Virus record (IMG/VR): IMGVR_UViG_3300028876_000002
DNA length: 64,000 nucleotides
Source: a virus
Reading direction: 5' to 3' (one strand)
Under the pieces are notes generated by a model. That model was not told the origin of the DNA. It saw only the letters and a program-made list of their open reading frames with translations, and made no database searches. Position numbers and translations under genes: made by a program. Positions 2,816 through 64,000 of the stretch are shown here, one piece after another; positions within the stretch are counted from its first letter, which is position 1; each line of letters starts with the position of its first letter.

Positions 2816-3802
2816 ATGTCCGCAACGTTGACTTGGTTTTCCAGCGGTCTAGGGGTGAAACTTGGCACTACCCGGGCCGACTTCATCACGGACTTGAATA
2901 ACTTGGTGGTTACGAAGGTAGCGGACGCCAATTTCAAGTGGGAGGTGGCTTCCGTAAGTGTTGCGGGCAACCCCAATTGGCTATGTCTGAAACGCAAGAG
3001 CGGGGCGGCGGGGCGCATCCTGATCGTGGCCTATACTGCTGCCCCTGCCGGAGCGAACACCGCGCTGTTTGACGTAGCCGCCGGATCCATACTCACAACC
3101 GGCGCGTACATCGCGTGGTTTCCAGCTGGGAATGTGGACACACCTTCAAACCTGACTGCAGCTTCAGGAACGATACTGGGCGATGATACCGGTGTCGTTA
3201 AAGCAGCCAATAACGGTACTACCAACGCAAACTACCCAGCTTTATTTCAGCACTACTACTTCGATTCTGACGAAGGGATCTGGTTCTTCCAGACGAATCC
3301 TGCTGCCTCCACGATAGGGTACATGGCCGCCGGAGACCTGCTCGTTGACGGCAGTGACGTTGCGTATGGTGCCACGATCGGCGGTGGAGGTTCGGGAACC
3401 TTGTCGTGGTCAGCGAGCGGCGCCACTCAACACCTGTTCTCTGCTACTACGATATCCGCTGGTGCTTCCACACAAGTTATTCGTACCAACTACGGTTCGA
3501 GCAACCGCACGTACTACAACGCCTACAGCATCAACGGGGTTTGGGCAGCTTCCGCCGCTTCCCCCACGGACATAATGACAGATACGGCGTTGAATAAAGC
3601 GTGGTTCTTACCTGTGGCCGTGATCGGGAACACGAAAGGCGAGGGCCCTATCCTGAAGCACCGGCAGGTAGCCTTCGGCCCGGCCGTGACAGGTTCGTTC
3701 ACGGTGTACAGTACGACGGGCCCTGCGGTGCAGGCTCGGCACATGAGCGGTAACACCGTGGTGACCACCGGGATACCGTGGTTGACGAATTTCAAACTGT
3801 AA
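2816..3802 (+). CDS. putative tail/receptor-binding structural protein
   Basis: 328 aa, beta-rich and Gly/Ala/Thr-rich, in fibre operon; locally more AT-rich. Confidence 0.5.
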   Translation: MSATLTWFSSGLGVKLGTTRADFITDLNNLVVTKVADANFKWEVASVSVAGNPNWLCLKRKSGAAGRILIVAYTAAPAGANTALFDVAAGSILTTGAYIAWFPAGNVDTPSNLTAASGTILGDDTGVVKAANNGTTNANYPALFQHYYFDSDEGIWFFQTNPAASTIGYMAAGDLLVDGSDVAYGATIGGGGSGTLSWSASGATQHLFSATTISAGASTQVIRTNYGSSNRTYYNAYSINGVWAASAASPTDIMTDTALNKAWFLPVAVIGNTKGEGPILKHRQVAFGPAVTGSFTVYSTTGPAVQARHMSGNTVVTTGIPWLTNFKL

Positions 3803-3812
3803 GGGCACCGGC

Positions 3813-4379
3813 ATGAGACTCGCTCGTCTGTTTCCGGATCTGTCATTTAGGGATGTGGTCCTGATGGAAACTCAGGCTTACAACGATCTGCAGGTATCGA
3901 ACCCTGCCAGGTACGCTCTCCTGCGCGTTCTGGTGACCGACCCCTTACCGACTATCACGAACCTGCAGCGGATCGTCGCAGGCCCAGTCGTGATCGAGGC
4001 GCTGCAGGCTCGGGAGACCTGGACCGTCATCGACAAAACCCCGCAGGAAATCGCGGACGAAGCCGAAGCCGCTGCTATCGCCGCGGATCTACTGCAGGTA
4101 CAGAACCGACTGGACAACCTGGTCGAAGCCATCAACCAGCACCAAGCCGTGCTCGACGTGCCGTACTCCGAGCCTCCCCAGGCGGGGACGAACGCGTTGG
4201 AGATCACAGCCCTGCGGCTGCGCACGAGGAACGCCGAACAGGCGATCCGCGGTGTCGAGCGCGACCTGATCCTCGCCATGAGGTCTGCGCGCTTTCTGCT
4301 GCGTGAGACCAAGCACCGACTGAGCGCCGCGGCCACCCTTGTTGCGGCACGCGGCACACCGAAAACCGCGAAAAAATGA
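3813..4379 (+). CDS. hypothetical, possible fibre assembly chaperone
   Basis: QRIV.G...ETWTVIDKTPQEIA motif followed by a coiled coil. Confidence 0.4.
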   Translation: MRLARLFPDLSFRDVVLMETQAYNDLQVSNPARYALLRVLVTDPLPTITNLQRIVAGPVVIEALQARETWTVIDKTPQEIADEAEAAAIAADLLQVQNRLDNLVEAINQHQAVLDVPYSEPPQAGTNALEITALRLRTRNAEQAIRGVERDLILAMRSARFLLRETKHRLSAAATLVAARGTPKTAKK

Positions 4380-4609
4380 CCCTCCCTCCCATCCCTCAGG
4401 ACAAGGCCAACCACTTCCTCTACGGCACGGTGGTATGTGCCGTGGTCACCCTCCTCACCCGACAACCTATCGCCGGCCTCATCGCCGTGGTGGCGCTCGG
4501 GTTTGCCAAGGAGGTGTACGACCTGGTGTCCAAACGTGGCACTCCAGACTGGCGCGACGTGGCCTGGACTGCAGCCGGCGGACTTGTGGTCTGGGCCGGC
4601 AACGTGTGA
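4376..4609 (+). CDS. small membrane protein
   Basis: DKANHF...AKEVYD...DWRD motif with hydrophobic segments. Confidence 0.55.
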   Translation: MTLPPIPQDKANHFLYGTVVCAVVTLLTRQPIAGLIAVVALGFAKEVYDLVSKRGTPDWRDVAWTAAGGLVVWAGNV

Positions 4610-4971
4610 TCGCCGGCACCCAGTTCACGATCCAACCCCTGCCGGCGCTGCGTGTGCGCCCGAACCTCACCGCCGGGCTGGCGGAAGTTCAGGCAGAATG
4701 CGAAGCTGACAGGGCCACCTGCCTGGTGTGTGAGGACGTAGTGATCGTCTTCGACCTTCGAGCGCGGGACGGAGCCTTGGAGATGTTCGTCTGGCTGGCC
4801 GTGGCCCTGAAGCACGGCGCCTTCGAGCGTCAAGCCGCCGCGGTGTGCGCAGTCGCCCGCGATCTCGGAGCAACAACGGTCGCCTTCGAGTCTCGGAGGC
4901 GGGGTTGGGCGAGGCGGCTGGGTCCTGAGTGGCGCCCCCGCGGAACCCGCGAGTTCGTCCGAGAGGTGTGA
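4606..4971 (+). CDS. virion assembly protein, possible acetyltransferase fold (P22 gp14/T7 gp13 position)
   Basis: GTG start overlapping upstream stop; lies just before the ejection proteins; SRRRGWAR motif. Confidence 0.45.
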   Translation: MIAGTQFTIQPLPALRVRPNLTAGLAEVQAECEADRATCLVCEDVVIVFDLRARDGALEMFVWLAVALKHGAFERQAAAVCAVARDLGATTVAFESRRRGWARRLGPEWRPRGTREFVREV

Positions 4972-29013: not shown

Positions 29014-29328
29014 TCAAAGACCCGTGGGTTGTGCCACGGCACGTGTGAGCTTCATCAGCCCGGTTTGGAAATCAGTGCGGGCCATGGCGAGCCACCGCTC
29101 GGGCTGCGCCTCCTGGAGGCGTTGCTGCTCGTCAGCATCTTTCAGCACGACGGAACCGCCGACAGCGGGGAGGCTGCTCACCGGCCCGCATGCAGCACGT
29201 TGGTAGGCAATGTGATCGCCCACCACGTTAAGCAGCATCTCCGTGGTTGCCGCCAGGTTTCTGATCGCCACGTCCGCCGCCAGCCCTGTGTGCAACGTGG
29301 TCCCACGCACTCGTGTGCTCTCGTCCAT
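29014..29328 (-). CDS. hypothetical protein
   Basis: AAGGA RBS; ends TGLMKLTRAVAQPTGL. Confidence 0.55.
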   Translation of the reverse strand: MDESTRVRGTTLHTGLAADVAIRNLAATTEMLLNVVGDHIAYQRAACGPVSSLPAVGGSVVLKDADEQQRLQEAQPERWLAMARTDFQTGLMKLTRAVAQPTGL

Positions 29329-39423: not shown

Positions 39424-39565
39424 GACTAGGCTCCTTTCAAAAAGGAGCCGGCGGATAGACCGGCTTCGGTTGTTGCTTCTTGAGCCGGGCCCACTCTTTC
39501 AGGTCGAGCCGGCCGAATGGCCAGCCGAGAGGGTCGGCTCGTTTGTTGGGGCTCACAGTCCCTGG

Positions 39566-40384
39566 TCAAGCTGCCACGAGCTTACGCAGCAAGCCTACGG
39601 GGTCGAGCTCGACCCACGCCCACGCCGCCTCCGCCGCCTCCGCCGCCGCCGCCTCCGCCCACGCCGCCTCCGCCGCCTCCGCCCACGCCGCCTCCGCCGC
39701 CTCCGCCCACGCCGCCTCCGCCGCCCACGCCCACGCCGCCTCCGCCGCCCACGCCGCCTCCGCCCACGCCGCCTCCGCCGCCTCCGCCCACGCCGCCTCC
39801 GCCTCCGCCTCCGCCCACGCCGCCTCTGCCGCCCACGCCGCCGCCGCCGCCCGCGCCGCCGCCGCCGCCGCCGCCGCCTCCGTCGCCGCCGCCGCCTCCG
39901 TCGCCCGCGCCGCCCGCGCCGCCCGCGCCGCCCGCGCCGCCCGCGCCGCCCGCGCCGCCCGCGCCGCCGCCTCAGGCGTGCGGAGGCGGCACATGGTTTG
40001 CCACTCGGGGCCGAAGCCGTACCTGTCGGCTGTTGGTTGCACCATCGGTAGAGCCACCTCCCACATGTGCGTGAGGAGCACCTCAAGCCGCCTGCGCTCT
40101 GCAGCCGGGTCGCGTCCCGTGCCTGCGGCCTGGGGTAGCAAGGCCCGCCACTCAATGCTGTTGCGCAAGGTGGCAGGCATGGCGTCCTGCGTCGCGATGA
40201 TCCAACGCCCGATGACCTCCGACATGCAGGGAGGCACGGAGTCGGTCAGTTGACCAGTCAAGGCGAGGTTTATTGCAGCAACGCTGCACGCCTCGTGCTT
40301 GTCGCCCAGGCCGTAAGGGATGTTGGTCTGGGCAGCAAGGCGCTGGATGATGGCTTGGGTTTGTTCAGGGGTAAGGGTGCTCAC
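39566..40384 (-). CDS. Ala/Trp/Glu repeat protein
   Basis: Globular N-terminus (CSVAAINLALTG...CMS.VIG) then AAR/AAWAE repeats. Confidence 0.7.
   Translation of the reverse strand: MSTLTPEQTQAIIQRLAAQTNIPYGLGDKHEACSVAAINLALTGQLTDSVPPCMSEVIGRWIIATQDAMPATLRNSIEWRALLPQAAGTGRDPAAERRRLEVLLTHMWEVALPMVQPTADRYGFGPEWQTMCRLRTPEAAARAARAARAARAARAARAARATEAAAATEAAAAAAAARAAAAAWAAEAAWAEAEAEAAWAEAAEAAWAEAAWAAEAAWAWAAEAAWAEAAEAAWAEAAEAAWAEAAAAEAAEAAWAWVELDPVGLLRKLVAA
39620..39975. repeat. GCC-rich low-complexity coding repeats
   Basis: CGCCGCCTC, CCCACGCCG and CGCCGCCCG units. Confidence 0.85.
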
Positions 40385-43051: not shown

Positions 43052-43525
43052 TCAAGGTTGCGAGAGGTAGGCGTCAGCGAATGCTACAGCGACTGCGGCT
43101 TGGTACTGGGCCAGCGTGGGGGCGACTGCGGCTTGGTACTGGGTCTGCGCGGTGCTGCGTGCGGCGTCGTACTGGGCCCCCGCGGTGCTGCGTGCGGCGT
43201 CGTACTGGGCCCACGCGGTGTCGCATGCGGCGGCGTACTGAGCCCGCGCGGTGTCGCATGCGGCGGCGTACTGAGCCCGCGCGGTGCTGCGTGCGGCGTC
43301 GTACTGGGTCCGCGCGGTGCTGCGTGCGGCGTCGTACTGGGTCCGCGCGGTGCCGGTCAGCAGGTTGTTTGCCGCCCACCCGAAGTCAAACACCGAGGCG
43401 AGAGCGAGGCAGGCGGCAGGGGTGACCAAGGCCGAACCGGTCGGGAAGTGCTTGCGGAAAAGTGCAACTTGAGGTTGGCAGGCACCGTGGGCTAGGAGCT
43501 GGTCGAGGGTGATGCGTGAAGGCAT
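43052..43525 (-). CDS. 11-residue-repeat protein
   Basis: GAC..QV..F..HFP N-terminus, then AR(T/A)QY(D/A)AA(R/C)(S/D)T repeats (33-bp units). Confidence 0.75.
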   Translation of the reverse strand: MPSRITLDQLLAHGACQPQVALFRKHFPTGSALVTPAACLALASVFDFGWAANNLLTGTARTQYDAARSTARTQYDAARSTARAQYAAACDTARAQYAAACDTAWAQYDAARSTAGAQYDAARSTAQTQYQAAVAPTLAQYQAAVAVAFADAYLSQP

Positions 43526-43574: not shown

Positions 43575-43591
43575 AGCGAAAACCGTGCCGG
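43575..43591 (-). promoter_or_regulatory. sigma54-like promoter
   Basis: CCGGCACGGTTTTCGCT (GG-N10-GC), intergenic, ~50 bp before ORF start 43525. Confidence 0.55.
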
Positions 43592-43642
43592 AGGCGAAAT
43601 TCAGGCCGCGTGAGCCAGTGTTCGTGACTTATTCACACTTGG

Positions 43643-43791
43643 TGTCGGGTTGGGTTTAGCTTTCAAGCGTTTACACCTCCGCGTATTGCGTAAGAGAATT
43701 TGGAAATATATTTGTAACAGAAATAACGTTTGAATTTTTCCCGCATGACGCGATAGGCTGTAAGGGGCTAAAAGCTAAAACCAACCCGACA
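43643..43791. repeat. 21-bp inverted repeat (20/21) flanking an AT-rich 107-bp core
   Basis: TGTCGGGTTGGGTTTAGCTTT (43643-43663) vs AAAGCTAAAACCAACCCGACA (43771-43791). Confidence 0.8.
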
Positions 43792-44225
43792 TTCACCGAT
43801 TTGGTGCATTTTGGCTCCGCCCACCCGGCCGTTTGGCTGTTTGTGGCGGATCGTTCATGTGTCGGGCCTGCCACCGCCCTGAGACATGCTCAAGAACCCA
43901 CCCAGGAGGGCACACAGCAGCACATTCGGCGTAGGTCGGTAGGGTGGTGGCTTGACGGCTCGCGGGAGCCTCTACGGCCCGGAAATCGACGACCCACGGG
44001 TTCATGGACCGGAGCACAGCCTTAATAGTTCGTGTGCGCTTACTCACTTAGTGTCCTTGCAGAATTTTGCAGATTCAACCCAGAGCACGGAACCGAAGGT
44101 CAGCGTGCACGCAGCGGAGCCGTCAACGGCAACGATCACCACCTCTACCGTGTCGGGGGCCCGGGGGTAGAAGTCCAGCACCAGCCGGACGGGCGCGCAT
44201 GTGGGGGCGGGGGCCGGGTCGGGAC

Positions 44226-44927: not shown

Positions 44928-45385
44928 GATTGGATCCAGGTTTGAGCGAAGGTATCAGCCAGGAAATAGGCAGACGATTGCAAGCCGTGCTTCACAGGCT
45001 TGCGGCGGTAGAGTTCGAACACCTGCACCCCGCCGTTGATCGTGGTGAGGCGCACACCGTAGTTGCGCATCGTGTCACCAGCAAAGCGCATGTTCTCCCG
45101 AGAGAAGTAATGCGACTCGGTATTCCGGGCCAGCAATTCGGCACGCAGGCCGGAGGGGGTGAGCTTGCGGGGCGGTTCGTACGTCACGATATCGCTCACG
45201 CAGCACGAGGCACCATCGGTGAAGGAGACTTGAACCCCGTACGCTTTCGCGAAAGGGGTGCGCGACTCCAGCGATTCAACGATGCGCCCGGTGATGATGC
45301 CGCTGCGCGCGGTGTGGTGCGACACGATGCCACCCTTGCGAATCCGCAGGGGCTGGAAGTAGGGTGCGACTTTGATAGTGGTCAT
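44924..45385 (-). CDS. hypothetical early protein
   Basis: Start 22 nt after sigma54 box; HYFSRENMRFAGDT motif. Confidence 0.65.
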   Translation of the reverse strand: MTTIKVAPYFQPLRIRKGGIVSHHTARSGIITGRIVESLESRTPFAKAYGVQVSFTDGASCCVSDIVTYEPPRKLTPSGLRAELLARNTESHYFSRENMRFAGDTMRNYGVRLTTINGGVQVFELYRRKPVKHGLQSSAYFLADTFAQTWIQS

Positions 45386-45407
45386 TGGGTTTTCCTGAGA
45401 AGAGAGA

Positions 45408-45424
45408 AGCAGGGATCGTGCCAG
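45408..45424 (-). promoter_or_regulatory. sigma54 promoter
   Basis: CTGGCACGATCCCTGCT. Confidence 0.75.
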
Positions 45425-45425
45425 T

Positions 45426-45824
45426 TCACTCGCCGACGTAGAAGAAGACTTTCGATTCGTCAACGCCCTGACTAATGCGGCCGCTGCACACCCCGTCTTC
45501 ACAGTATTGCCGGTACAGAGCCCAATCCCAAGGCAATTGCATGCCGCTTTCGCGCATGGCAGCACTGATATCCTGAATCAGCATTGCGCACAGCTCATCA
45601 TTGCTGTGGGCTTCCAGCTCTTCACGATCCCATGCACCGTACGCTTCGAAGTGACTGATAACCTCGTCACGGTTTTCGTCGGTGACGTAGTTGTACCTTG
45701 GTGCGTTGTCATTCGCGGCTTGCCATGTGTATTGCCCTGCCGAAAGGCCGAGTTCGGCAATGCTGGCCGAGTAGTCACGGGGGTATTCGGAATTGAAGAA
45801 GTCGGTAATGTCGAGTTCAAGCAT
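45426..45824 (-). CDS. hypothetical early protein (acidic)
   Basis: SASIAELG..AG..TW...HFEAYGAW; stop abuts next promoter. Confidence 0.7.
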   Translation of the reverse strand: MLELDITDFFNSEYPRDYSASIAELGLSAGQYTWQAANDNAPRYNYVTDENRDEVISHFEAYGAWDREELEAHSNDELCAMLIQDISAAMRESGMQLPWDWALYRQYCEDGVCSGRISQGVDESKVFFYVGE

Positions 45825-46170
45825 GACGGGCTTTCAGGTAGTCGGCCATTGCAGCACTGTCCAGCAAGTCGGCCAGCGTGTCGGCGTCGGGGTCTTCGTC
45901 AACCGGTTCCAGTTCGGCAGTGATCCACGCTGCGCCGAACGCTTGTTCGCCGTTCGGGCCTTCGTAGACGGTTGCAAGCACGCCATATTCAGCTTCACCA
46001 TCGGTGGTGATGGTGTCGGCTATGTGCTGCCGGGTAGGGCCTTCGTTGTACATGCTCAAGACCAAGGCACGCAGGGCTGCGAAGGGGCACTCAGTGTCGG
46101 CCAGGTTCACGGTGTGGCAGGGGAAGTTACCTTCATTGCCATCACCAGCACGAAATAGGTAAGTCTTCAT
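45817..46170 (-). CDS. hypothetical early protein
   Basis: GGAG RBS, ATGA overlap. Confidence 0.6.
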   Translation of the reverse strand: MKTYLFRAGDGNEGNFPCHTVNLADTECPFAALRALVLSMYNEGPTRQHIADTITTDGEAEYGVLATVYEGPNGEQAFGAAWITAELEPVDEDPDADTLADLLDSAAMADYLKARHA

Positions 46171-46316
46171 GCCCGTGCTCCCCGTGCGCAATGCAGCGCG
46201 TAATGGCAGGCCGATGCGAAGGCCACGCCAGCCGCTTGCAGCGCGCGCACTGCGGCCGCAAGGTCAGTGCGGGCGATCATGCGCGCGAAAGTGATGGCAC
46301 GTTGCAGAGTGGTCAT
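46167..46316 (-). CDS. small early protein (49 aa)
   Basis: AAAGGA RBS directly after sigma54 box; not in ORF track. Confidence 0.5.
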   Translation of the reverse strand: MTTLQRAITFARMIARTDLAAAVRALQAAGVAFASACHYALHCARGARA

Positions 46317-46341
46317 GATTGGGTTCCTTTGAGTAGAGAGA

Positions 46342-46358
46342 AGCAAGAGTTAGGCCAA
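46342..46358 (-). promoter_or_regulatory. sigma54 promoter
   Basis: TTGGCCTAACTCTTGCT plus the shared TCTCT leader. Confidence 0.65.
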
Positions 46359-46706
46359 TTGGGCGAGGCATTCAGAAGCGAGTTCGGCCCGCACTACACG
46401 GCGGTACGCGTCACTCGCGTCAAGGATCGACCATAAGGAGGTGAGCACGTAGCCGTCAGCACTGCGGATGCGGCAACCTTCGCAAGTCTCGAACCTGAAC
46501 CCGTCGTGCTTCGCATCGTAGGCCCCGTCAACGTCGTCAACCCACTCGCACGTCGCGTTAGAGCGCATGAACACCAGTTCTGCAGCCGCCAGCGAGATGG
46601 CGCAACGTGTGCGACCCATGGCGGGGGTTTCGTCGGGCCTGTGGCTGTAACCCGCGTTGCGAAAGAAAAACGCTTCGTCGGGTGTGAGTTTGCGAGTGGG
46701 TTTCAT
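46350..46706 (-). CDS. hypothetical early protein
   Basis: FFRNAGYS...SLWSI...YRRVVRAELA. Confidence 0.65.
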   Translation of the reverse strand: MKPTRKLTPDEAFFFRNAGYSHRPDETPAMGRTRCAISLAAAELVFMRSNATCEWVDDVDGAYDAKHDGFRFETCEGCRIRSADGYVLTSLWSILDASDAYRRVVRAELASECLAQLA

Positions 46707-46721
46707 GGTGTGCTTTCAGAG

Positions 46722-46868
46722 TTAGGCCACAGCGCGACGCAGTTCAATTGCGCCAATCTGCCTACGCGCTTCGAAGGCGTAGTTGCGTGCCAGGTGCCGG
46801 CGGGTCGGGTCATTGCGAAGGCAACGAATCCAAGCCGCTGCGGCAGAGATAAGAGAATAGTGGTTCAT
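46722..46868 (-). CDS. small early protein (48 aa)
   Basis: AGGAG RBS after sigma54 box; not in ORF track. Confidence 0.5.
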   Translation of the reverse strand: MNHYSLISAAAAWIRCLRNDPTRRHLARNYAFEARRQIGAIELRRAVA

Positions 46869-46892
46869 GGTGTGGGCTCCTGAGAGAAGAGA

Positions 46893-46909
46893 AGCAGGGA
46901 TCGTGCCAA
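46893..46909 (-). promoter_or_regulatory. sigma54 promoter
   Basis: TTGGCACGATCCCTGCT. Confidence 0.78.
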
Positions 46910-46910
46910 C

Positions 46911-47147
46911 CTACTTAACGTGGGTTTCAAGGCCCGCACGAAACGCGGCAGCGCGTAACTCTGCGCCCAGTTCGGCCGGGGAGAATCCAGTTCCCTCCAT
47001 TCCATAGTGCACGCAGTAGCTAAACAACCCAGGATCACGAAGCACAAGCGCACCCCGCAATGCAACCCGATGGTATTTGCGAACGCCAGTCAGCGCCGCA
47101 CGTGCAGCGTTTTCAGTGGTGAAAGTGCAATGGGCTTGTGTGAGCAT
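46911..47147 (-). CDS. small early protein
   Basis: GGAG RBS after sigma54 box; stop abuts next box. Confidence 0.55.
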   Translation of the reverse strand: MLTQAHCTFTTENAARAALTGVRKYHRVALRGALVLRDPGLFSYCVHYGMEGTGFSPAELGAELRAAAFRAGLETHVK

Positions 47148-47178
47148 GGCGCGGACTCCGGTTGAATGAGAGTAGAGA

Positions 47179-47195
47179 AGCAGGGATCGTGCCAA
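47179..47195 (-). promoter_or_regulatory. sigma54 promoter
   Basis: TTGGCACGATCCCTGCT. Confidence 0.78.
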
Positions 47196-47348
47196 TCAAC
47201 GAATCTTCACCGAACGAGCGCCAAGGATGAAGAGACAGAAGTCCGCCGGCCCGTAGCACGGGGCGCGACTGCGGAATTCAGCAACGGCAGCCGCCAGCCC
47301 CTGAGTCGCAAGGATGCCGCGAATGGTGAGGATGGTGCCGTAGTTCAT
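47196..47348 (-). CDS. small early protein (50 aa)
   Basis: MNYGTILTIRG...; TGA directly adjacent to the next sigma54 box; not in ORF track. Confidence 0.55.
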   Translation of the reverse strand: MNYGTILTIRGILATQGLAAAVAEFRSRAPCYGPADFCLFILGARSVKIR

Positions 47349-47379
47349 TGCAGTTCTCTAGGTTGAATGAGAGTAGAGA

Positions 47380-47396
47380 AGCAAAGGCCGTGCCAA
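47380..47396 (-). promoter_or_regulatory. sigma54 promoter (consensus)
   Basis: TTGGCACGGCCTTTGCT. Confidence 0.82.
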
Positions 47397-47576
47397 TTAG
47401 TTTGGCTCACACTGACAGTCACCGCAACCCTCAGAGGTGAGCATGCGGGCGAGATACCCGGCCCGGCCGCTGACCATGCGACGGGCACCGGAACGATGCT
47501 CACAGAATAGGGGCTCGCCCGCATCACTGAATCCGCAGAAGTAGCCGTACCGGGCGCGGATGATGTAGGTTTTCAT
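47397..47576 (-). CDS. small early protein (59 aa)
   Basis: MKTYIIRARYG...; TAA directly adjacent to the next box. Confidence 0.55.
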   Translation of the reverse strand: MKTYIIRARYGYFCGFSDAGEPLFCEHRSGARRMVSGRAGYLARMLTSEGCGDCQCEPN

Positions 47577-47611
47577 GTTGCGGTTCTTTGCAGGTTGAAT
47601 GCACAGACACA

Positions 47612-47628
47612 TGCATGACTCGTGCCAG
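47612..47628 (-). promoter_or_regulatory. sigma54 promoter
   Basis: CTGGCACGAGTCATGCA; leader shares CATTCAACC with two other cassettes. Confidence 0.72.
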
Positions 47629-47679
47629 CCCCTGCAACCCCCTGCAACCCCCTGCAACCCCTGCAACCCCTGCAACCCC
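47629..47679. repeat. five tandem CTGCAACCC(C) units
   Basis: Direct reading: three 10-mers then two 9-mers. Confidence 0.9.
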
Positions 47680-47711
47680 GTCCACCAAGCCGAACGCCAG
47701 AAATACCTCTG

Positions 47712-47730
47712 TGGTATGCTTCTTGCATAC
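47712..47730 (+). promoter_or_regulatory. divergent sigma54-like promoter overlapping a palindrome
   Basis: TGGTATGCTTCTTGCA (GG-N10-GC); GTATGC-N5-GCATAC. Confidence 0.55.
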
Positions 47731-47779
47731 TGTGTCAATCCCAAGCCACAAACCGTTAACCAAAATCGTCACCCCCAAA

Positions 47780-48088
47780 ATGCGCCTGCAAAGACTGGAC
47801 CACCCCACGAACCCCGAGCACGGAGGCGTGCTCTGCACCTTCCCCAGCGGGGCCACCAAGGCCGTGCAATGGCCCTCCGCGGGCTACATCACAGACACGC
47901 ACAAGGCAGCCGTGCACGCGGCCACAGAGCTTGTGGACCACATGCTTCGGGTCGGCCTGATCGATGATTTGGAGCGCACGAATATCCCGTCGTGTGTGGC
48001 AGCGATCCAAGCGGTGATGGTTCAGCACAACGAGGCGTGGTTGGGGAGGACGGGAGTCGTGACTCAGGGCTCGGGGCTTGTGATTTAG
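47780..48088 (+). CDS. hypothetical protein
   Basis: Only plausible ORF between the promoter and terS; weak RBS. Confidence 0.4.
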   Translation: MRLQRLDHPTNPEHGGVLCTFPSGATKAVQWPSAGYITDTHKAAVHAATELVDHMLRVGLIDDLERTNIPSCVAAIQAVMVQHNEAWLGRTGVVTQGSGLVI

Positions 48089-48247
48089 GAGGGGGTGGGG
48101 AGGTAGGGGGAGAAGGGCGCTGGGCAGGAAGCCCCTCACCCCCTCCTAGGCCCACAGCCTGTCCAAGTCCCGATCCGGAAATCGAGATTCCGGGGACCAG
48201 AAAACGTCACTTTGCTAAAAATTGCAGAAATTATTTTCTGAATTTCC

Positions 48248-48988
48248 ATGGACGATATTGCTGCCCACCTCAAATCGCTACTTCCGAAGCGTCCCCCGGT
48301 GAAAAAGCCTGCCAAAAGCGGCAATATCATCCGGAAGCGGGCCACCGCAGAGCGGGCAGCAGCAGCCGGAGACCCGGATGCCGAGCAGCGGCTCCAGCGC
48401 GTCGAGGAGGAGACCGCCGAGTACGCCGAGCGCATCTCCGCACGGGGCAACCTGGAGTTGCAGGCCGCCGAGATAGTCGCCCGCAAGACGGTACTGCCTA
48501 TCGACCGCTGCAGCAGTGACCCGCGCCTCCAGGCCGCAATCGCGAAGAAGACGCAAGAACGCCTCGCTGCCGCGGACATAACCGCCGGCAAGGTGATGCA
48601 CGCCATTGGTCGAATCGCCTTCGCGGACATCCGCCGGGCGTTCGACGACGAGGGTGGAATGGTGCCGATCAACCAGCTCGACGACGACACGGCCATGGCG
48701 ATCTCGTCGGTGGACGTGGAGACGAAGGTGGAGCGCACGCTGACCGAGGGCATGCGCAGCGTGACCAGCGTCAAGAAGCTGCGGATGTCGGACCGGATGT
48801 CGGCCCTCACCCTGCTGGCCAAGCACTTCAAGTTGGTGGGCGACGAGGGCGACGGCGTGAACGCGCTCGCCAGCGCCCTGGCCGATCGGCTCGACCGGGC
48901 CCAGAAGCGGATGCACGGCACTGCCCCAGCGCAGCCTATCGAGGATGCAGTCATCCGCGAGCCCAGGGCCGTAGACTACGGGTCCTGA
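48248..48988 (+). CDS. terS: terminase small subunit
   Basis: ITAGKV...IAFADIRRAFD, KKLRMSDRMSALTLLAKHF; precedes terL. Confidence 0.85.
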   Translation: MDDIAAHLKSLLPKRPPVKKPAKSGNIIRKRATAERAAAAGDPDAEQRLQRVEEETAEYAERISARGNLELQAAEIVARKTVLPIDRCSSDPRLQAAIAKKTQERLAAADITAGKVMHAIGRIAFADIRRAFDDEGGMVPINQLDDDTAMAISSVDVETKVERTLTEGMRSVTSVKKLRMSDRMSALTLLAKHFKLVGDEGDGVNALASALADRLDRAQKRMHGTAPAQPIEDAVIREPRAVDYGS

Positions 48989-49028: not shown

Positions 49029-49282
49029 TGACCTGCAACTACAGCAAGCGCAGCCCGAACTTCACTCCCACCCCGCACGGCGCCACCCACGTCGCCGAAC
49101 TGCAACCGGCCGCCGACTTCCGAGCCAAGGCCACCGGCGTCGGCAACACCCTCGCCGTCAGCCTGGCCACCGGCCGCGTGCGCTCGCAGTTGGCTGCGGA
49201 ACCGCCGGAGGGCACCACCGCGGACATGGCCGAGGACCTGCTGGAGGAAGCCTCGTACCAAGGCAAGGGAATTGGCTACTAA
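49029..49282 (+). CDS. hypothetical protein between terS and terL
   Basis: GGAG RBS. Confidence 0.45.
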
Positions 49283-49391
49283 AGGGACCATCAATGCCAG
49301 CCCCGTACGGCTGCCTGGCCTACCGGCCGGCATCACGACCGTACGGGCTCCCCCACCCCAATGCAGAGTCCCGATCCGTCCAGGAGACGCC

Positions 49392-50891
49392 ATGAACGCC
49401 GCCATTGAAGGTACCGCCCTGGACCGCGTGATGGACGGGCTGGAGCGGTATTGCAACGACCCTTACGGCTTCGTGATGTGGGCGTTCCCGTGGGGTGAGT
49501 TCGGGACCTCGCTCGAAGACCAGGCCGGCCCGCAGCCGTGGCAGGAGGCGCAGCTCAAGCGCATCGGTGAGCGCCTGCGCGCGGGAGCCGCCAGTCCCGC
49601 ACAGGGCTGCGTGATCGAGGAGGACACGGTGGCCGGCCGCGGGGTCGGCAAGTCGGCGCTGGTGTCGTGGCTTATCCTGTGGTCGGTCAGCACCCACAAG
49701 GACACCCGCGGCGTGGTGACCGCCAACACCGACTCGCAACTCCGGACCAAGACGTGGGCGGAGTTGAGCAAGTGGCACCAGCTCTTCATCGCCAGGGACC
49801 TGTTCACCTTCACAGCCACCAGCATCTACATCGCCAACGACAAGGTGCGGGAGAAGGCGTGGCGGGTGGATGCAATCCCGTGGAGCGAGTCGAACACCGA
49901 GTCGTTCAACGGCCTGCACAACCAGGGCAAGCGGCTGATCGTGATCTTCGACGAGGCGTCTGCTATCAGCGACAAGATCTGGGAGGGCATGCGCGGGACC
50001 CTCACGGACGCCCGCACTCAGATCCTGTGGCTGCGCTACGGCAACCCGACGCGCACGTCCGGGATGTTCTTCAACCGGTGCACGAAGCCCAACCGCAACG
50101 TCGTGACCCGGGTAGACAGCCGCGAGGTGAGCTTCACGAACAAGGAGGAGATCCAGGCGTGGATCGACGAGGAGGGGGAGGACTCGGACTTCGTGCGGGT
50201 GCACGTCAAGGGTATGTTCCCGCGGGCCGGCTACAGCAACTTCATCTCGCCCGAGCTGGTGTTCAACGCCCGCCGCCGCCGGCTCAAACCGGAGACCTAC
50301 CGCGCATACCCGAAGATCATGGCGATCGACCCGGCCCGCTTCGGGGACGACTCGTCGGTCATCACGATCCGGCAAGGCCTCAAGGTCCTGCTGCAGGTGG
50401 CCTTGCAAGGCTTCGACGGCGTGGACCTGGCCGGCCGCGTGTTCGAGCTGTGCCGCAAGGAGGGGCCGATCTCGTGCATCGCGTACGACGCCATCGGCAA
50501 CGGAGCGGACTTGGACTCGGCGCTGCGCCGCATGCAGGGCCTACCGCACCTGATGCCGATTCAGTGGGGCGTGCCGGCGAGCGACGACAAGCAGTACCGC
50601 AACCAGCGCAGCGAGTGCTGGGGCAAGATGCGGGAGTGGCTGGAGAGCGGGCAGATCCCGGACGAGGACGACCTGAGCAACCAGCTCACGAGTCTGGACT
50701 ACGGCCACGACGACCGGTTCAGGATCTCGTTGCAGAGCAAGAAGGACATGAAGAAGAATGGAGGTAAGTCGCCGGACCGCGCCGACTCCTTAGCGATCAG
50801 CTTCGCCCCCGATCTCGTTAAGATTACCACAACCAGAGCCAAGGTTATCCCTACGAAACGTCGGACGGTAATCTGGTCGAGAACGTCCTGA
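49392..50891 (+). CDS. terL: terminase large subunit
   Basis: Walker A GRGVGKS, Walker B IFDEAS, GNPTR, nuclease IDPARFGDD and PDRADSL; AGGAG RBS. Confidence 0.95.
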   Translation: MNAAIEGTALDRVMDGLERYCNDPYGFVMWAFPWGEFGTSLEDQAGPQPWQEAQLKRIGERLRAGAASPAQGCVIEEDTVAGRGVGKSALVSWLILWSVSTHKDTRGVVTANTDSQLRTKTWAELSKWHQLFIARDLFTFTATSIYIANDKVREKAWRVDAIPWSESNTESFNGLHNQGKRLIVIFDEASAISDKIWEGMRGTLTDARTQILWLRYGNPTRTSGMFFNRCTKPNRNVVTRVDSREVSFTNKEEIQAWIDEEGEDSDFVRVHVKGMFPRAGYSNFISPELVFNARRRRLKPETYRAYPKIMAIDPARFGDDSSVITIRQGLKVLLQVALQGFDGVDLAGRVFELCRKEGPISCIAYDAIGNGADLDSALRRMQGLPHLMPIQWGVPASDDKQYRNQRSECWGKMREWLESGQIPDEDDLSNQLTSLDYGHDDRFRISLQSKKDMKKNGGKSPDRADSLAISFAPDLVKITTTRAKVIPTKRRTVIWSRTS

Positions 50892-50925
50892 ATCTGGCAC
50901 AATAGCGAGACTAAGGAGATCCGCT

Positions 50926-51576
50926 ATGCCAAGAGAATTCGTAGTCTACAACGGTGAAAAGTTTTGGTTGCAGACGACCGGCCGGTACTTCCAGTCCGGT
51001 CGTCACGGCCCGAATGCCAAGGAGCGACTGCTACACCGTCGCATTTGGACCGACAACTTCGGGCCGATCCCTGAAGGGACAGAGGTGCACCACCTGGATG
51101 AGGACTGGAGGAACAACGCTCCGGGCAACTTGGAAGTGCGATCCATCTCCAAGCACCGCCGAGAACACCAACTGCAGCGTATGGCGGAGCCTGAGTTCAG
51201 GGCGAAGGCCATCCAGGCGTTGAGAGACAACTCCGGCAAAGCGGCCGAGTGGCATGCATCGCCGGAAGGCCGTGAGTGGCACGCCAAGAACTCCCTCCAG
51301 GCATGGGAGAAGCGCGAACCAGTGGCTGCGGTGTGCTCCGTCTGCACTGCGGCGTACCAGACGTACTTCCCTGACCGGTCACGGTTCTGCTCCCACTCGT
51401 GCGAGCAGAAAGAAGGCCGTATCAGGCACAAGACCGCCGTAGGCTCGTGCCTCCAGTGCGGGACGACATTCACCTTCAACAAGTACCGGAAGGGTGGCCA
51501 GGAGTGTTGCTCCAGAGGCTGTGGCATCCGGCGCCGGCTGGGCCACCCACCGGCAATCGACGCACCCCTGGGTTGA
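50926..51576 (+). CDS. HNH homing endonuclease with C-terminal Zn fingers
   Basis: LHRRIW...GPIP...VHHLDED..NN..NL; CxxC pairs. Confidence 0.88.
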   Translation: MPREFVVYNGEKFWLQTTGRYFQSGRHGPNAKERLLHRRIWTDNFGPIPEGTEVHHLDEDWRNNAPGNLEVRSISKHRREHQLQRMAEPEFRAKAIQALRDNSGKAAEWHASPEGREWHAKNSLQAWEKREPVAAVCSVCTAAYQTYFPDRSRFCSHSCEQKEGRIRHKTAVGSCLQCGTTFTFNKYRKGGQECCSRGCGIRRRLGHPPAIDAPLG

Positions 51577-61429: not shown

Positions 61430-61741
61430 GTGGCCACCTCCACCATCTTCGAGTTCGATGCCGATCCCGGTAACCCGCTGCCGCGCACCTGGCGCGGCAA
61501 GCTGAACCTGCTGGAGCGGCCCTCGGCATTCGCGATCTGCCAGGTGAAGGCCGAGGACTACGCCAGCATCCTGCTGCGGTTGTACGCTGACGGGGCGCTG
61601 CTAACCGAGGTCACCGTCACCAGCCAGGAGGAGTTCACCTTGCCGCTGGCGAACGAGTACGCCAGCTTCGAAGTCGAGGTGTACGGTACCTCGCGCGTCT
61701 ACTCCATCCAGGTGGCCGAGGACGTGATGGAGCTCACCTGA
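61430..61741 (+). CDS. detached C-terminal domain of the stabilisation protein, copy B
   Basis: GTG start; paralogue of 1-312. Confidence 0.75.
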   Translation: MATSTIFEFDADPGNPLPRTWRGKLNLLERPSAFAICQVKAEDYASILLRLYADGALLTEVTVTSQEEFTLPLANEYASFEVEVYGTSRVYSIQVAEDVMELT

Positions 61742-61961
61742 TGGCACTCGGCAAACCCCCCATCAGCACCCCGCGCACGCTCGAACTGCGCGTCGTGGCG
61801 CAGGCTGTCGAGAACATCCGCCAGCGCATCGAGGCGATTGAAGGTGTCAGCGCCACCACGGCCGCGCAAGCCGGCGAGACCACGCTGCGGGCTGGGCAGC
61901 AGAACATCAGCATCTCGGCGCTGCGGGCGCAACTGGTGGCGCTGGCGGCTCGTGTGGACGC
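61700..61961 (+). repeat. second copy of the 262-bp identical block
   Basis: Matches 271-532. Confidence 0.9.
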
Positions 61962-64000
61962 TCTCACGACCGCCGACCCGGAACTGGAGACCTTCCGCGC
62001 TGGCTCCGCCATCACGATCGGCACGGCGGTGTACCCGTCCGGGGACGGCGTGGTGTCGCAGGTTGACCCTAGCGACCCGGTGAAGGTCTATGCGGTGCTG
62101 GGGGTGGCCACCCAGACCGTGGTGGAAGGCGCCAACATCGTCGTGCGCAAGGCCGGCGTGATGCAGATCATCGGCGCGGTGTTCGAGCCTGGCGGGCCGG
62201 TGTACGTCGGTGTGGACGGGCTGACGCAATTCCCGGATTATGTCAACTTGGCGATCCCGGTGGGTGCGGCCGTCAGCGCCGACGAGATCGACGTGTGGCC
62301 GGGCTGGCCGGCGCTGCAGCACCCGGGCGTCTACTCGGAGTACGAGACCTTCCTGCCCGCGACTTGGGGCCTGGTGCGCGACGCGGTGACTCTGGCTCAG
62401 GACTTCAACTCGGCCGGCAATGGCCTGGTGGTGAAGATTGGACCGGACGACGTGACGACGCGCACGATCGAAGTGGGCGGGAACCTGGTGGTCGAAGATG
62501 GCAACGGAGTGGGCGACAACCCGTTCATCTACGACACGCCGATCTCCAACCTCCCGATCCGCAGCGGAGGGTTGAACGGTCACGAAGCCGTGGCCGTTGA
62601 CGACGGGGATGGCACCTCGTACCAGGTGAGCGTGCAGGACATCGCAGACCTCGCAGGTTCCGGCTCAGGATCCGTGACCTCGGTGGGTATCACGCCAGCG
62701 GACGGGGTCACGTCCGTTGGAGGGCCGATCACTTCATCCGGATCCATCACCATCGGGCTCGGCAACATCACGCCTACGTCAGTGGCCGCCAGCGGCACGG
62801 TGGCAGGCTCCAACCTCAGCGGCACCAACACCGGCGACCAGACCATCACCCTGACTGGTGATGTGGCAGGTTCCGGGACCGGGTCGTTTGCCACCACCCT
62901 GGCAACGGTGAACAGCGACGTCGGGTCATTCGGCTCCAGCACCGCCATCCCGTCGTTCACGGTCAACCCTAAGGGTCTGGTCACAGCGGCCAGCACCAAC
63001 GCGGTCGTGGCACCGGCCGGCACGCTGACAGGTACCACTCTGGCCGCCAACGTGGTCACCAGCTCGCTGACGAGCGTCGGTACGATCAACACTGGGGTGT
63101 GGCAAGGCACACCGCCGGCAGCCAACTTCGGAGGCACGGGCTTCTCCACCTACGCGGTGGGTGACATCCTCTATGCCAGCACCGCCAGCGTGCTGTCGAA
63201 GCTGGCAGATGTGGCGACGGGAAACGCACTCATCTCTGGTGGGGTCGGCGCGGCGCCGGCCTGGGGCAAGATCGGACTCACCACGCACGTCAGTGGCACA
63301 TTGGCCACCGGGAACGGAGGCACCGGGTTGTCGTCCTACGCTGACGGAGTGGTCCTGACATCCATATCGAACAGCCTAACCCCGATAGCGGCCGGCGTTG
63401 ATGGCCAGGTTATCGTGCGCGTCGGCGGTTTTCCCGCTTGGTCAAACGCACCGAGCAGTGCCCTGACGTCCACCAACATCGGCTACGGCAATGGGTCGAA
63501 CGTGCTTACCGGCACGTCCACCTTCACCTGGGCGAACTCGACGCTCACGATGCAGATGGGCGCCGGCACGGGCCCGTCTACACTTCGCACGGCCAACGCT
63601 TCCAGTGGCGCAAATGCCGCCTCCTTGACCATCCAAACCGGCGATGCTGCGCCCAGCGTTGTCGGCGCTGGCCTGCTGACCATCCAAGGCGGTGCTGGCG
63701 CCGGCACGTCCGCTGCCGGCAGCATCGCCATAACGGCCGGCAACAACCCAAGTTCAGGTGCTGGTGGATCCGTGTCAATCACGGCCGGAACAAGTTCAAG
63801 CGGTACAGCCGGCAATTTCACCGTGGTGGTCAACGGCACCACGCGGTTGACCATCTCGAACACGGGCGCGGCCACGTTTCAGTCGTCGCTTGCTGGCACA
63901 TCCGGCGTGTTCTCGTCCACGCTGGAAAGCGCGTCGCTGCTGGTCACCGGATCGACGGCGCCAGCCAACGGTATGTATCTCCAAGCCGCGGGCGTGGTTG
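61741..64000 (+). CDS. long tail fibre (at least 753 aa, 3' truncated): adaptor fused to fibre
   Basis: Frame read by hand with no stop to 64000 (missing from ORF track); GSFGSSTAIPSFTVNPKGLVT and GGTG..Y.VGDILYAS fibre motifs. Confidence 0.85.
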   Translation, partial: MALGKPPISTPRTLELRVVAQAVENIRQRIEAIEGVSATTAAQAGETTLRAGQQNISISALRAQLVALAARVDALTTADPELETFRAGSAITIGTAVYPSGDGVVSQVDPSDPVKVYAVLGVATQTVVEGANIVVRKAGVMQIIGAVFEPGGPVYVGVDGLTQFPDYVNLAIPVGAAVSADEIDVWPGWPALQHPGVYSEYETFLPATWGLVRDAVTLAQDFNSAGNGLVVKIGPDDVTTRTIEVGGNLVVEDGNGVGDNPFIYDTPISNLPIRSGGLNGHEAVAVDDGDGTSYQVSVQDIADLAGSGSGSVTSVGITPADGVTSVGGPITSSGSITIGLGNITPTSVAASGTVAGSNLSGTNTGDQTITLTGDVAGSGTGSFATTLATVNSDVGSFGSSTAIPSFTVNPKGLVTAASTNAVVAPAGTLTGTTLAANVVTSSLTSVGTINTGVWQGTPPAANFGGTGFSTYAVGDILYASTASVLSKLADVATGNALISGGVGAAPAWGKIGLTTHVSGTLATGNGGTGLSSYADGVVLTSISNSLTPIAAGVDGQVIVRVGGFPAWSNAPSSALTSTNIGYGNGSNVLTGTSTFTWANSTLTMQMGAGTGPSTLRTANASSGANAASLTIQTGDAAPSVVGAGLLTIQGGAGAGTSAAGSIAITAGNNPSSGAGGSVSITAGTSSSGTAGNFTVVVNGTTRLTISNTGAATFQSSLAGTSGVFSSTLESASLLVTGSTAPANGMYLQAAGVV

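Follow-up and report, generated by a model that had tools for sequence, protein, structure and literature searches.

Structure of the early region

The stretch of DNA analyzed here, hereafter the window, comprises 64,000 nucleotides of virus record IMGVR_UViG_3300028876_000002 and belongs to a new, uncultured tailed phage of soil type with a GC content of ~65%. Its leftward (minus-strand) genes start with a series of small open reading frames (ORFs) from approximately position 47576, which are followed by the replication genes. This series is interspersed with six short boxes, termed A to F, that resemble the -24/-12 promoters of sigma-54 (RpoN). The rightward (plus-strand) genes include orf102, the small terminase gene (48248–48988), the large terminase gene (49272–50891), a portal gene with an SU10-like Pfam match, and other structural genes.

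The whole window was scanned on both strands with a sigma-54 weight matrix, which is our own approximation of the published consensus, and the chance expectation was obtained from 1000 block shuffles of the window. Boxes A–F are the six top matches on either strand (15.0–21.0 bits). At a threshold of at least 15 bits, the window has six matches, whereas the shuffles average 0.45 and never exceed 4. The first-pass annotation of this DNA had placed six minus-strand boxes with a GG-N10-GC arrangement at these positions and had proposed a matrix scan; the scan returned all six, and the arrangement is exact in 6/6. Relatives of the phage were collected by searches based on the large terminase subunit (TerL). 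One of them, L010 (95% TerL identity), has four boxes at the corresponding location and is used for comparison in the following lists. The boxes are:

47612..47628, minus strand: box A, CTGGCACGAGTCATGCA, 16.3 bits, heading the leftward early operon; its homologue in L010 is at 2125
47380..47396, minus strand: box B, TTGGCACGGCCTTTGCT, 21.0 bits, perfect consensus
47179..47195, minus strand: box C, TTGGCACGATCCCTGCT, 17.6 bits
46893..46909, minus strand: box D, TTGGCACGATCCCTGCT, 17.6 bits
46342..46358, minus strand: box E, TTGGCCTAACTCTTGCT, 15.0 bits, with the TAA stop codon of ORF 46350–46706 inside; homologous variant in L010 at 1353
45408..45424, minus strand: box F, CTGGCACGATCCCTGCT, 15.6 bits; L010 lacks box F and its two upstream ORFs

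The six boxes are confined to 2.2 kb of the minus strand, with one box per 200–950 bp, and are located on the coding strand of the ORFs that follow them. Each box is followed by an ATG-initiated small ORF, as had been described initially; the distances from the C of the GC dinucleotide to the ATG are 36, 32, 32, 25, 26 and 23 nt for boxes A–F, respectively. A Shine-Dalgarno sequence lies between box and ATG, past the predicted transcription start, and a C-A step is present 12/13 nt past GC in all six cases. The stop codons at 47397, 47196, 46911 and 45426 adjoin the next box with a gap of 0–2 nt, and the stop at 46350 lies inside box E, in agreement with the earlier description of stops that abut or overlap the next box. 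The leader motifs that had been noticed were also recovered, TTCTCT after five boxes and CATTCAACC after three. Box and leader together make up a promoter-plus-leader module, the copies of which are 29–37 bp long and 89–97% identical.

A seventh box had been proposed at 43575:

43575..43591, minus strand: weak candidate, box G, CCGGCACGGTTTTCGCT, 10.1 bits; ORF 43052–43525 begins 50 nt downstream

With a rank of approximately 22 in the window, box G falls within the noise and by its score is not distinguishable from chance. It sits in the one large non-coding gap that interrupts the leftward operon. This gap (43600–43830) is AT-rich, is bracketed by a 20/21 inverted repeat and contains sigma-70-like hexamers on both strands (43670–43734).

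The ORFs of the array are:

47397..47576, minus strand: ORF c1, 59 amino acids, after box A
47196..47348, minus strand: ORF c2, 50 amino acids, after box B
46911..47147, minus strand: ORF c3, 78 amino acids, after box C
46722..46868, minus strand: ORF c4, 48 amino acids, after box D
46350..46706, minus strand: ORF c4b, 118 amino acids, without a box of its own; in comparison with L010 (1353), its junction resembles a degraded box
46167..46316, minus strand: ORF c5, 49 amino acids, after box E
45817..46170, minus strand: ORF c5b, 117 amino acids, start overlapping the stop of c5; absent from L010
45426..45824, minus strand: ORF c5c, 132 amino acids, phrog_24784 (function unknown); absent from L010
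44924..45385, minus strand: ORF c6, 153 amino acids, after box F; the L010 version is 90% identical and comes immediately after c5

Public gene callers independently give the same small ORFs. The first-pass annotation had assigned every cassette its own promoter. The six boxes are indeed oriented and spaced as promoters, but they serve at least nine ORFs: c4b, c5b and c5c lack individual boxes and are each coupled to the preceding ORF. No Pfam family and no usable Atlas match were found for the cassette ORFs, which gave only two PHROGs, both of unknown function. The role in host takeover or anti-defence suggested for the array ORFs is for this reason a guess from their position. The sole anti-defence-like domain found in the window is outside the array, in a 104-amino-acid ORF (29014–29328, minus strand) between the genes of the DUF2800 nuclease and the single-stranded DNA-binding protein (SSB). 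It matches the Acb2/Tad1 hairpin domain above the curated cut-off (E 8e-7, 29.6 bits), and the ORF is a candidate anti-CBASS or anti-Thoeris sponge.

Recurrence of the boxes in related phages

Similar arrays were found in two more distant relatives, L024 and L118 (64–65% TerL identity), which have five and three boxes, respectively. In the set of 18 boxes from the window, L010, L024 and L118, the GG-N10-GC arrangement is exact in 18/18. GG, GGCACG and TGC are invariant and form the peak of the information content, and the spacer of 4–5 nt is variable. A pyrimidine-purine step is present 12/13 nt past GC in 16 of the 18 boxes. The leader is kept only within a lineage, being TTCTCT-rich in the window and ATGTACTAGCCTGTACGCAAC in L024 and L118. 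Fixed GG, GGCACG and TGC blocks combined with a free spacer and a lineage-bound leader fit the contacts of sigma-54, and are unlike the pattern of a junction or a translation element.

A leftward-strand match of at least 13 bits is present within 450 nt of orf102 in 6 of 23 non-redundant relatives that have the orf102 divergent region in common with the window; the six represent four lineages (background 0.7% per stretch). A fifth lineage, L195, with a c6 homologue of 67% identity, has a box of 19.4 bits located 38 nt upstream of an ORF of 69 amino acids. In the complete relative G001 (61,445 bp), the two best genome-wide matches are both located in the leftward early region, and the match at its head is followed by a leader, a Shine-Dalgarno sequence and ATG. 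In all, such a box occurs in at least five lineages of the phage group, where it heads the leftward early operon or lies close to its start. When IMG/VR was scanned for the box-and-leader pattern, nine single unrelated matches with a GC content of 37–54% were obtained, which we take as chance or unrelated occurrences.

Gain and loss of ORF blocks

Comparison of the cassette content between relatives, which had been suggested earlier, revealed that ORF blocks are gained and lost at gene and box junctions between the window and L010. A 780-bp block that L010 lacks (ORFs 45817–46170 and 45426–45824, and box F) is located in the window exactly between c5 and c6. Two more segments are replaced by unrelated sequence, and the pieces common to both genomes are the boxes and leaders. 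The junction before ORF 46350–46706 resembles a box without its -12 half. Given their length and mutual identity, the module copies are possible recombination substrates, and, to judge only from the position of the junctions, recombination may take place at the modules.

Search for an activator and for upstream sites

An ATP-driven activator is needed to fire sigma-54 promoters, which are otherwise silent. In the called window ORFs of at least 60 amino acids, Pfam searches found no Sigma54_activat, sigma-54 or sigma-70 domain and no RNA polymerase. The six-frame translation of the window contains neither a GAFTGA motif nor a GxxGxGK[ST] P-loop. The complete relative G001 has no match to PF00158, whereas 14 of 14 control genomes do. 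These results bear out the initial impression that the window encodes no GAFTGA-type activator. No sigma-70-like site and no terminator were found in the region 45300–48300; the modules fold no better than shuffled sequences (z +0.3 to +0.7), and a search against Rfam gave nothing above noise.

Two elements are located between the divergent transcription units, upstream of box A and of orf102:

47629..47679, no strand: tandem repeat of five 9–10-bp units (GGGGTTGCAG on the minus strand, CCCCTGCAAC on the plus strand; 5x GTTGCAGGGG), adjoining box A
47711..47727, plus strand: sigma-54-like box, GTGGTATGCTTCTTGCA, 14 bits, at the same time a GTATGC-N5-GCATAC palindrome; orf102 begins 52 nt downstream

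The repeat array is the best local candidate for a protein-binding site, possibly an enhancer. In L010 the core CTGCAAC of the array is kept, but the unit is CCTCTGCAA, the copies are more numerous, and a second repeat, GAGCCCC, is present. The minus strand of the array has six runs of G4-5 that are 6 nt apart and could form a G-quadruplex. The plus-strand box has 16 of its 17 bases kept in L010, where the flanks have diverged, and nothing similar was found in other lineages. It could be either a promoter or an operator, and it is the sole late-side candidate for a sigma-54 site.

NtrC was considered as the activator and rejected. Its one single-mismatch site, TGCACCAAATCGGTGAA (43808–43792), is upstream of the weak box G, the counts are not above chance, and none of the sites is near boxes A–F. 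An operator-like word, GCCGC[GA]AAGTGTCAC, occurs in 2–3 copies near the head box in L024 (3680–3760; also in L118), L028 (5230–5330) and L029 (8000–8110). In L028 and L029 the copies are upstream of the head box, whereas in L024 and L118 they separate this box from the second one.

Proposed mechanism and alternative explanations

We propose, with a probability of roughly 0.6, that boxes A–F are genuine -24/-12 promoters of the host RpoN that are fired by a host activator. With six near-consensus boxes before the first small genes and neither an RNA polymerase nor an activator of its own, the phage probably depends on a host sigma-54 activator for its early expression. After DNA entry, a closed complex with the host sigma-54 holoenzyme would form at each box and be opened by a host AAA+ enhancer-binding protein. 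The activator could bind the short-repeat array beside box A or work from solution. Transcription would begin ~12–13 nt past GC, at the conserved C-A step, and the transcripts would have 5' leaders of ~11–25 nt that carry the ribosome-binding site. Since there are no terminators between the ORFs, the transcripts are expected to be nested and to run on into the downstream early genes. We speculate that the repeated promoter-plus-leader modules could double as junctions for the gain, loss and swap of ORF blocks between related phages.

Several observations weigh against this proposal. A box is absent from the head of the leftward operon in 17 of the 23 relatives. At least one relative without sigma-54 boxes, L021, has another repeated module of ~35 nt between its ORFs (3335–4775), CCCCCACACGCGCGCCCGTGCGCGAGAAAGA..ATG. 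As most relatives are boxless and the L021 module differs, the inter-ORF slot appears to be general and the sigma-54 box to be one of its several fillings. The repeat array at 47629–47679 is located at about -30 to -80 of box A, nearer than usual enhancers, and only coding sequence is present upstream of boxes B–F. A k-mer search found no upstream motif or enhancer site that the box-bearing lineages share. In four boxes TGC is preceded by CCC, which weakens sigma-54 binding at nifH-type promoters. Finally, it would be odd for a lytic phage to place its very first genes under an activator-gated sigma factor.

The boxes could also be sigma-54 promoters fired by non-classical means, either by a new phage-encoded or virion-delivered activator, or by a host activator of the PspF/RtcR kind that is switched on by infection. 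This explanation, which we consider unlikely, accounts for the lack of a canonical activator in the window and in the complete relative, for the maintenance of boxes at the start of infection-critical genes in at least five lineages, and for the lack of a visible non-coding enhancer upstream of boxes B–F. Many ORFs of the window, including virion proteins of 1080 and 717 amino acids, also have no assignable family. However, every known case of sigma-54 activation depends on an AAA+ ATPase with a GAFTGA-type loop, none is encoded, no candidate protein was identified, and a host activator that acts at a distance or from solution is simpler. Similarly improbable, in our opinion, is the wider proposal that a widespread phage group devoid of RNA polymerase and activator genes starts its infection via sigma-54, with an infection-induced host activator or a new non-AAA+ or virion-delivered activator as the trigger and the repeat arrays as a new kind of enhancer.

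Sigma-54 holoenzyme bound without an activator forms stable closed complexes and does not initiate. The boxes might therefore bind the holoenzyme mainly as decoys, roadblocks or insulators, sequestering RpoN or RNA polymerase on the phage DNA, and the lack of an activator and of a clear enhancer would agree with such a role. We regard it as quite improbable, because a decoy has no need of the observed geometry: 6/6 boxes point at an ORF from a short fixed distance, with a ribosome-binding site just past the predicted start, and the same geometry is present in L024/L118, L029 and L195. Moreover, no other promoter is visible for the array ORFs.

It is just as doubtful that the module is read by some other factor, such as a phage DNA-binding protein, a modified host polymerase or another sigma factor, or that it is a mere junction for recombination or translation initiation, its likeness to sigma-54 promoters being coincidental. 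Such a reading could draw on the inter-ORF modules of boxless relatives, for example the L021 unit that ends in a ribosome-binding site and ATG, on the coincidence of the module with indel boundaries, and on the conserved TTCTCT leader, which is outside the sigma-54 consensus. Yet the positions that are invariant across lineages are GG and TGC at the sigma-54 spacing, within TGGCACG-N4-YTGCW, and the leader, the expected carrier of a junction function, is not conserved between lineages. The sigma-70 and extracytoplasmic function (ECF) readings of the box are ruled out by the spacing and by the choice of conserved positions: the leading bases are not constant (C/T/G/A-TGGCA), the blocks are separated by 5 nt, too little for a -35/-10 pair, and there is no -10 element, nor did the scan find one.

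Other features of the genome

The leftward replication genes encode a D5-type helicase, an AEP primase, a DUF2800 nuclease, an Enc34-type SSB, a family A polymerase (PolA) and an SNF2 helicase; they are followed by a block of glycosyltransferase and methyltransferase genes. On the other side of the array, the control region is marked by a core gene:

47780..48088, plus strand: orf102, 102 amino acids, kept across the phage group; heads the rightward terminase and structural operon

The conservation of orf102 throughout the group makes it a marker of the divergent control region. An Atlas lead to a PP2C-like protein (0.93, 156 shared features) was under the trusted level and was not retained. 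Directly 3' of orf102 is a G/C-rich hairpin (48086–48149, ~17-bp stem, -38.7 kcal/mol), followed by an AT-rich stretch and the small terminase gene. The hairpin is almost identical in L010 and L133 and could be a terminator, an attenuator or a packaging-related element. In the interval between the large terminase and portal genes, 50892–51572 (with a 216-amino-acid ORF at 50926–51576) has no counterpart in L010, which is 87–91% identical; this is an indel in the structural operon.

No DNA-level similarity to the window was found among GenBank phages. The top TerL identity among them is 44%, and the top PolA identity is 52% (Bordetella phage BPP-1). In a public-assembly index, 34 blocks list the same phage, with 99.7–99.97% identity over 41.9–48.4 kb.

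A tRNA search of the window for a clue to the host found none. The closest relative in a genome bin is a 55-kb contig (TerL identity 61%) in a metagenome-assembled genome of Rhodanobacteraceae that has rpoN. No evidence makes this bacterium the host of the window phage, and the assignment was not adopted. The order-wide DNA search for a host gave as its sole matches a low-complexity CGCCGCCTC repeat (39617–39971). This long imperfect repeat (39617–39973, within ORF 39480–40253) has weak low-complexity matches in hundreds of bacterial genomes.

Two further repeats were observed in the window. A direct repeat of 1025 bp (13–1037 and 61442–62466, 92.8% identity) has its copies 61,429 bp apart, a distance near the size of the G001 genome (61,445 bp). 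The copies do not form an exact terminal redundancy, and different sequences follow them. A 33-bp tandem repeat with 7.9 copies (43094–43353) is located within ORF 43052–43525, and its copy number varies: the ORF has 113 amino acids in the near-identical contig L193 and 157 in the window.

Comparison with known systems and significance

The use of sigma-54 by phages is rarely documented, but it is not new in kind, since a precedent is published. Pseudomonas aeruginosa phage YuA is described as using host sigma-54 promoters (Ceyssens et al. 2008, J Bacteriol 190:1429, as cited in PMC10914365). Like the window phage, YuA has no RNA polymerase of its own, carries host sigma-54-type sites and relies on host sigma factors. 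Its three sigma-54 sites are reportedly located in the particle-formation and lysis region and are said to have been tested with an rpoN mutant by Ceyssens and colleagues in 2008; to our knowledge, no activator encoded by YuA has been described. In contrast to these late-region sites, the window boxes, identified here from DNA sequence, form a head-to-tail series of six and head leftward early ORFs rather than the structural operon.

The second related system is the mobile PeSL (promoter-early stem-loop) cassettes of T4-type phages (Arbiol et al. 2010, PMC2839356), in which a terminator stem-loop accompanies a sigma-70-like promoter. Like the PeSL cassettes, the window module is a short promoter element repeated between small early ORFans within a plastic region, and the differences between close relatives map to the junctions. 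Unlike PeSL, the module is of the sigma-54 type, and no sigma-70-like site, terminator or stem-loop was found. The locus joins the ideas of YuA and PeSL but fails the defining features of each.

With bacterial enhancer-dependent -24/-12 promoters such as glnAp2, nifH and pspA, the window boxes share GG-N10-GC within TGGCACG-N4-TTGCW and a start-like step 12–13 nt downstream. The TCGCT -12 region of box G resembles that of glnAp2, and the CCCTGC of four boxes that of nifH. They differ from these bacterial promoters in that no cognate activator gene or recognizable upstream activator sites were found, and in that the sites are arranged serially inside a viral operon.

If the first phage genes are indeed behind sigma-54 promoters, the start of infection would be tied to a host signal. 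This could explain a condition-dependent host range and phage resistance that is linked to rpoN rather than based on receptors. Should the trigger be an infection-switched or new activator, early expression would be licensed by a physiological or stress signal of the host. YuA, with a few late-region promoters, is the only phage precedent that we found in the literature, whereas the window has a series of boxes before early ORFan genes. The recurrence of the boxes in several lineages of an uncultured phage group, other lineages of which use different modules, may point to an under-described mode of phage early transcription.

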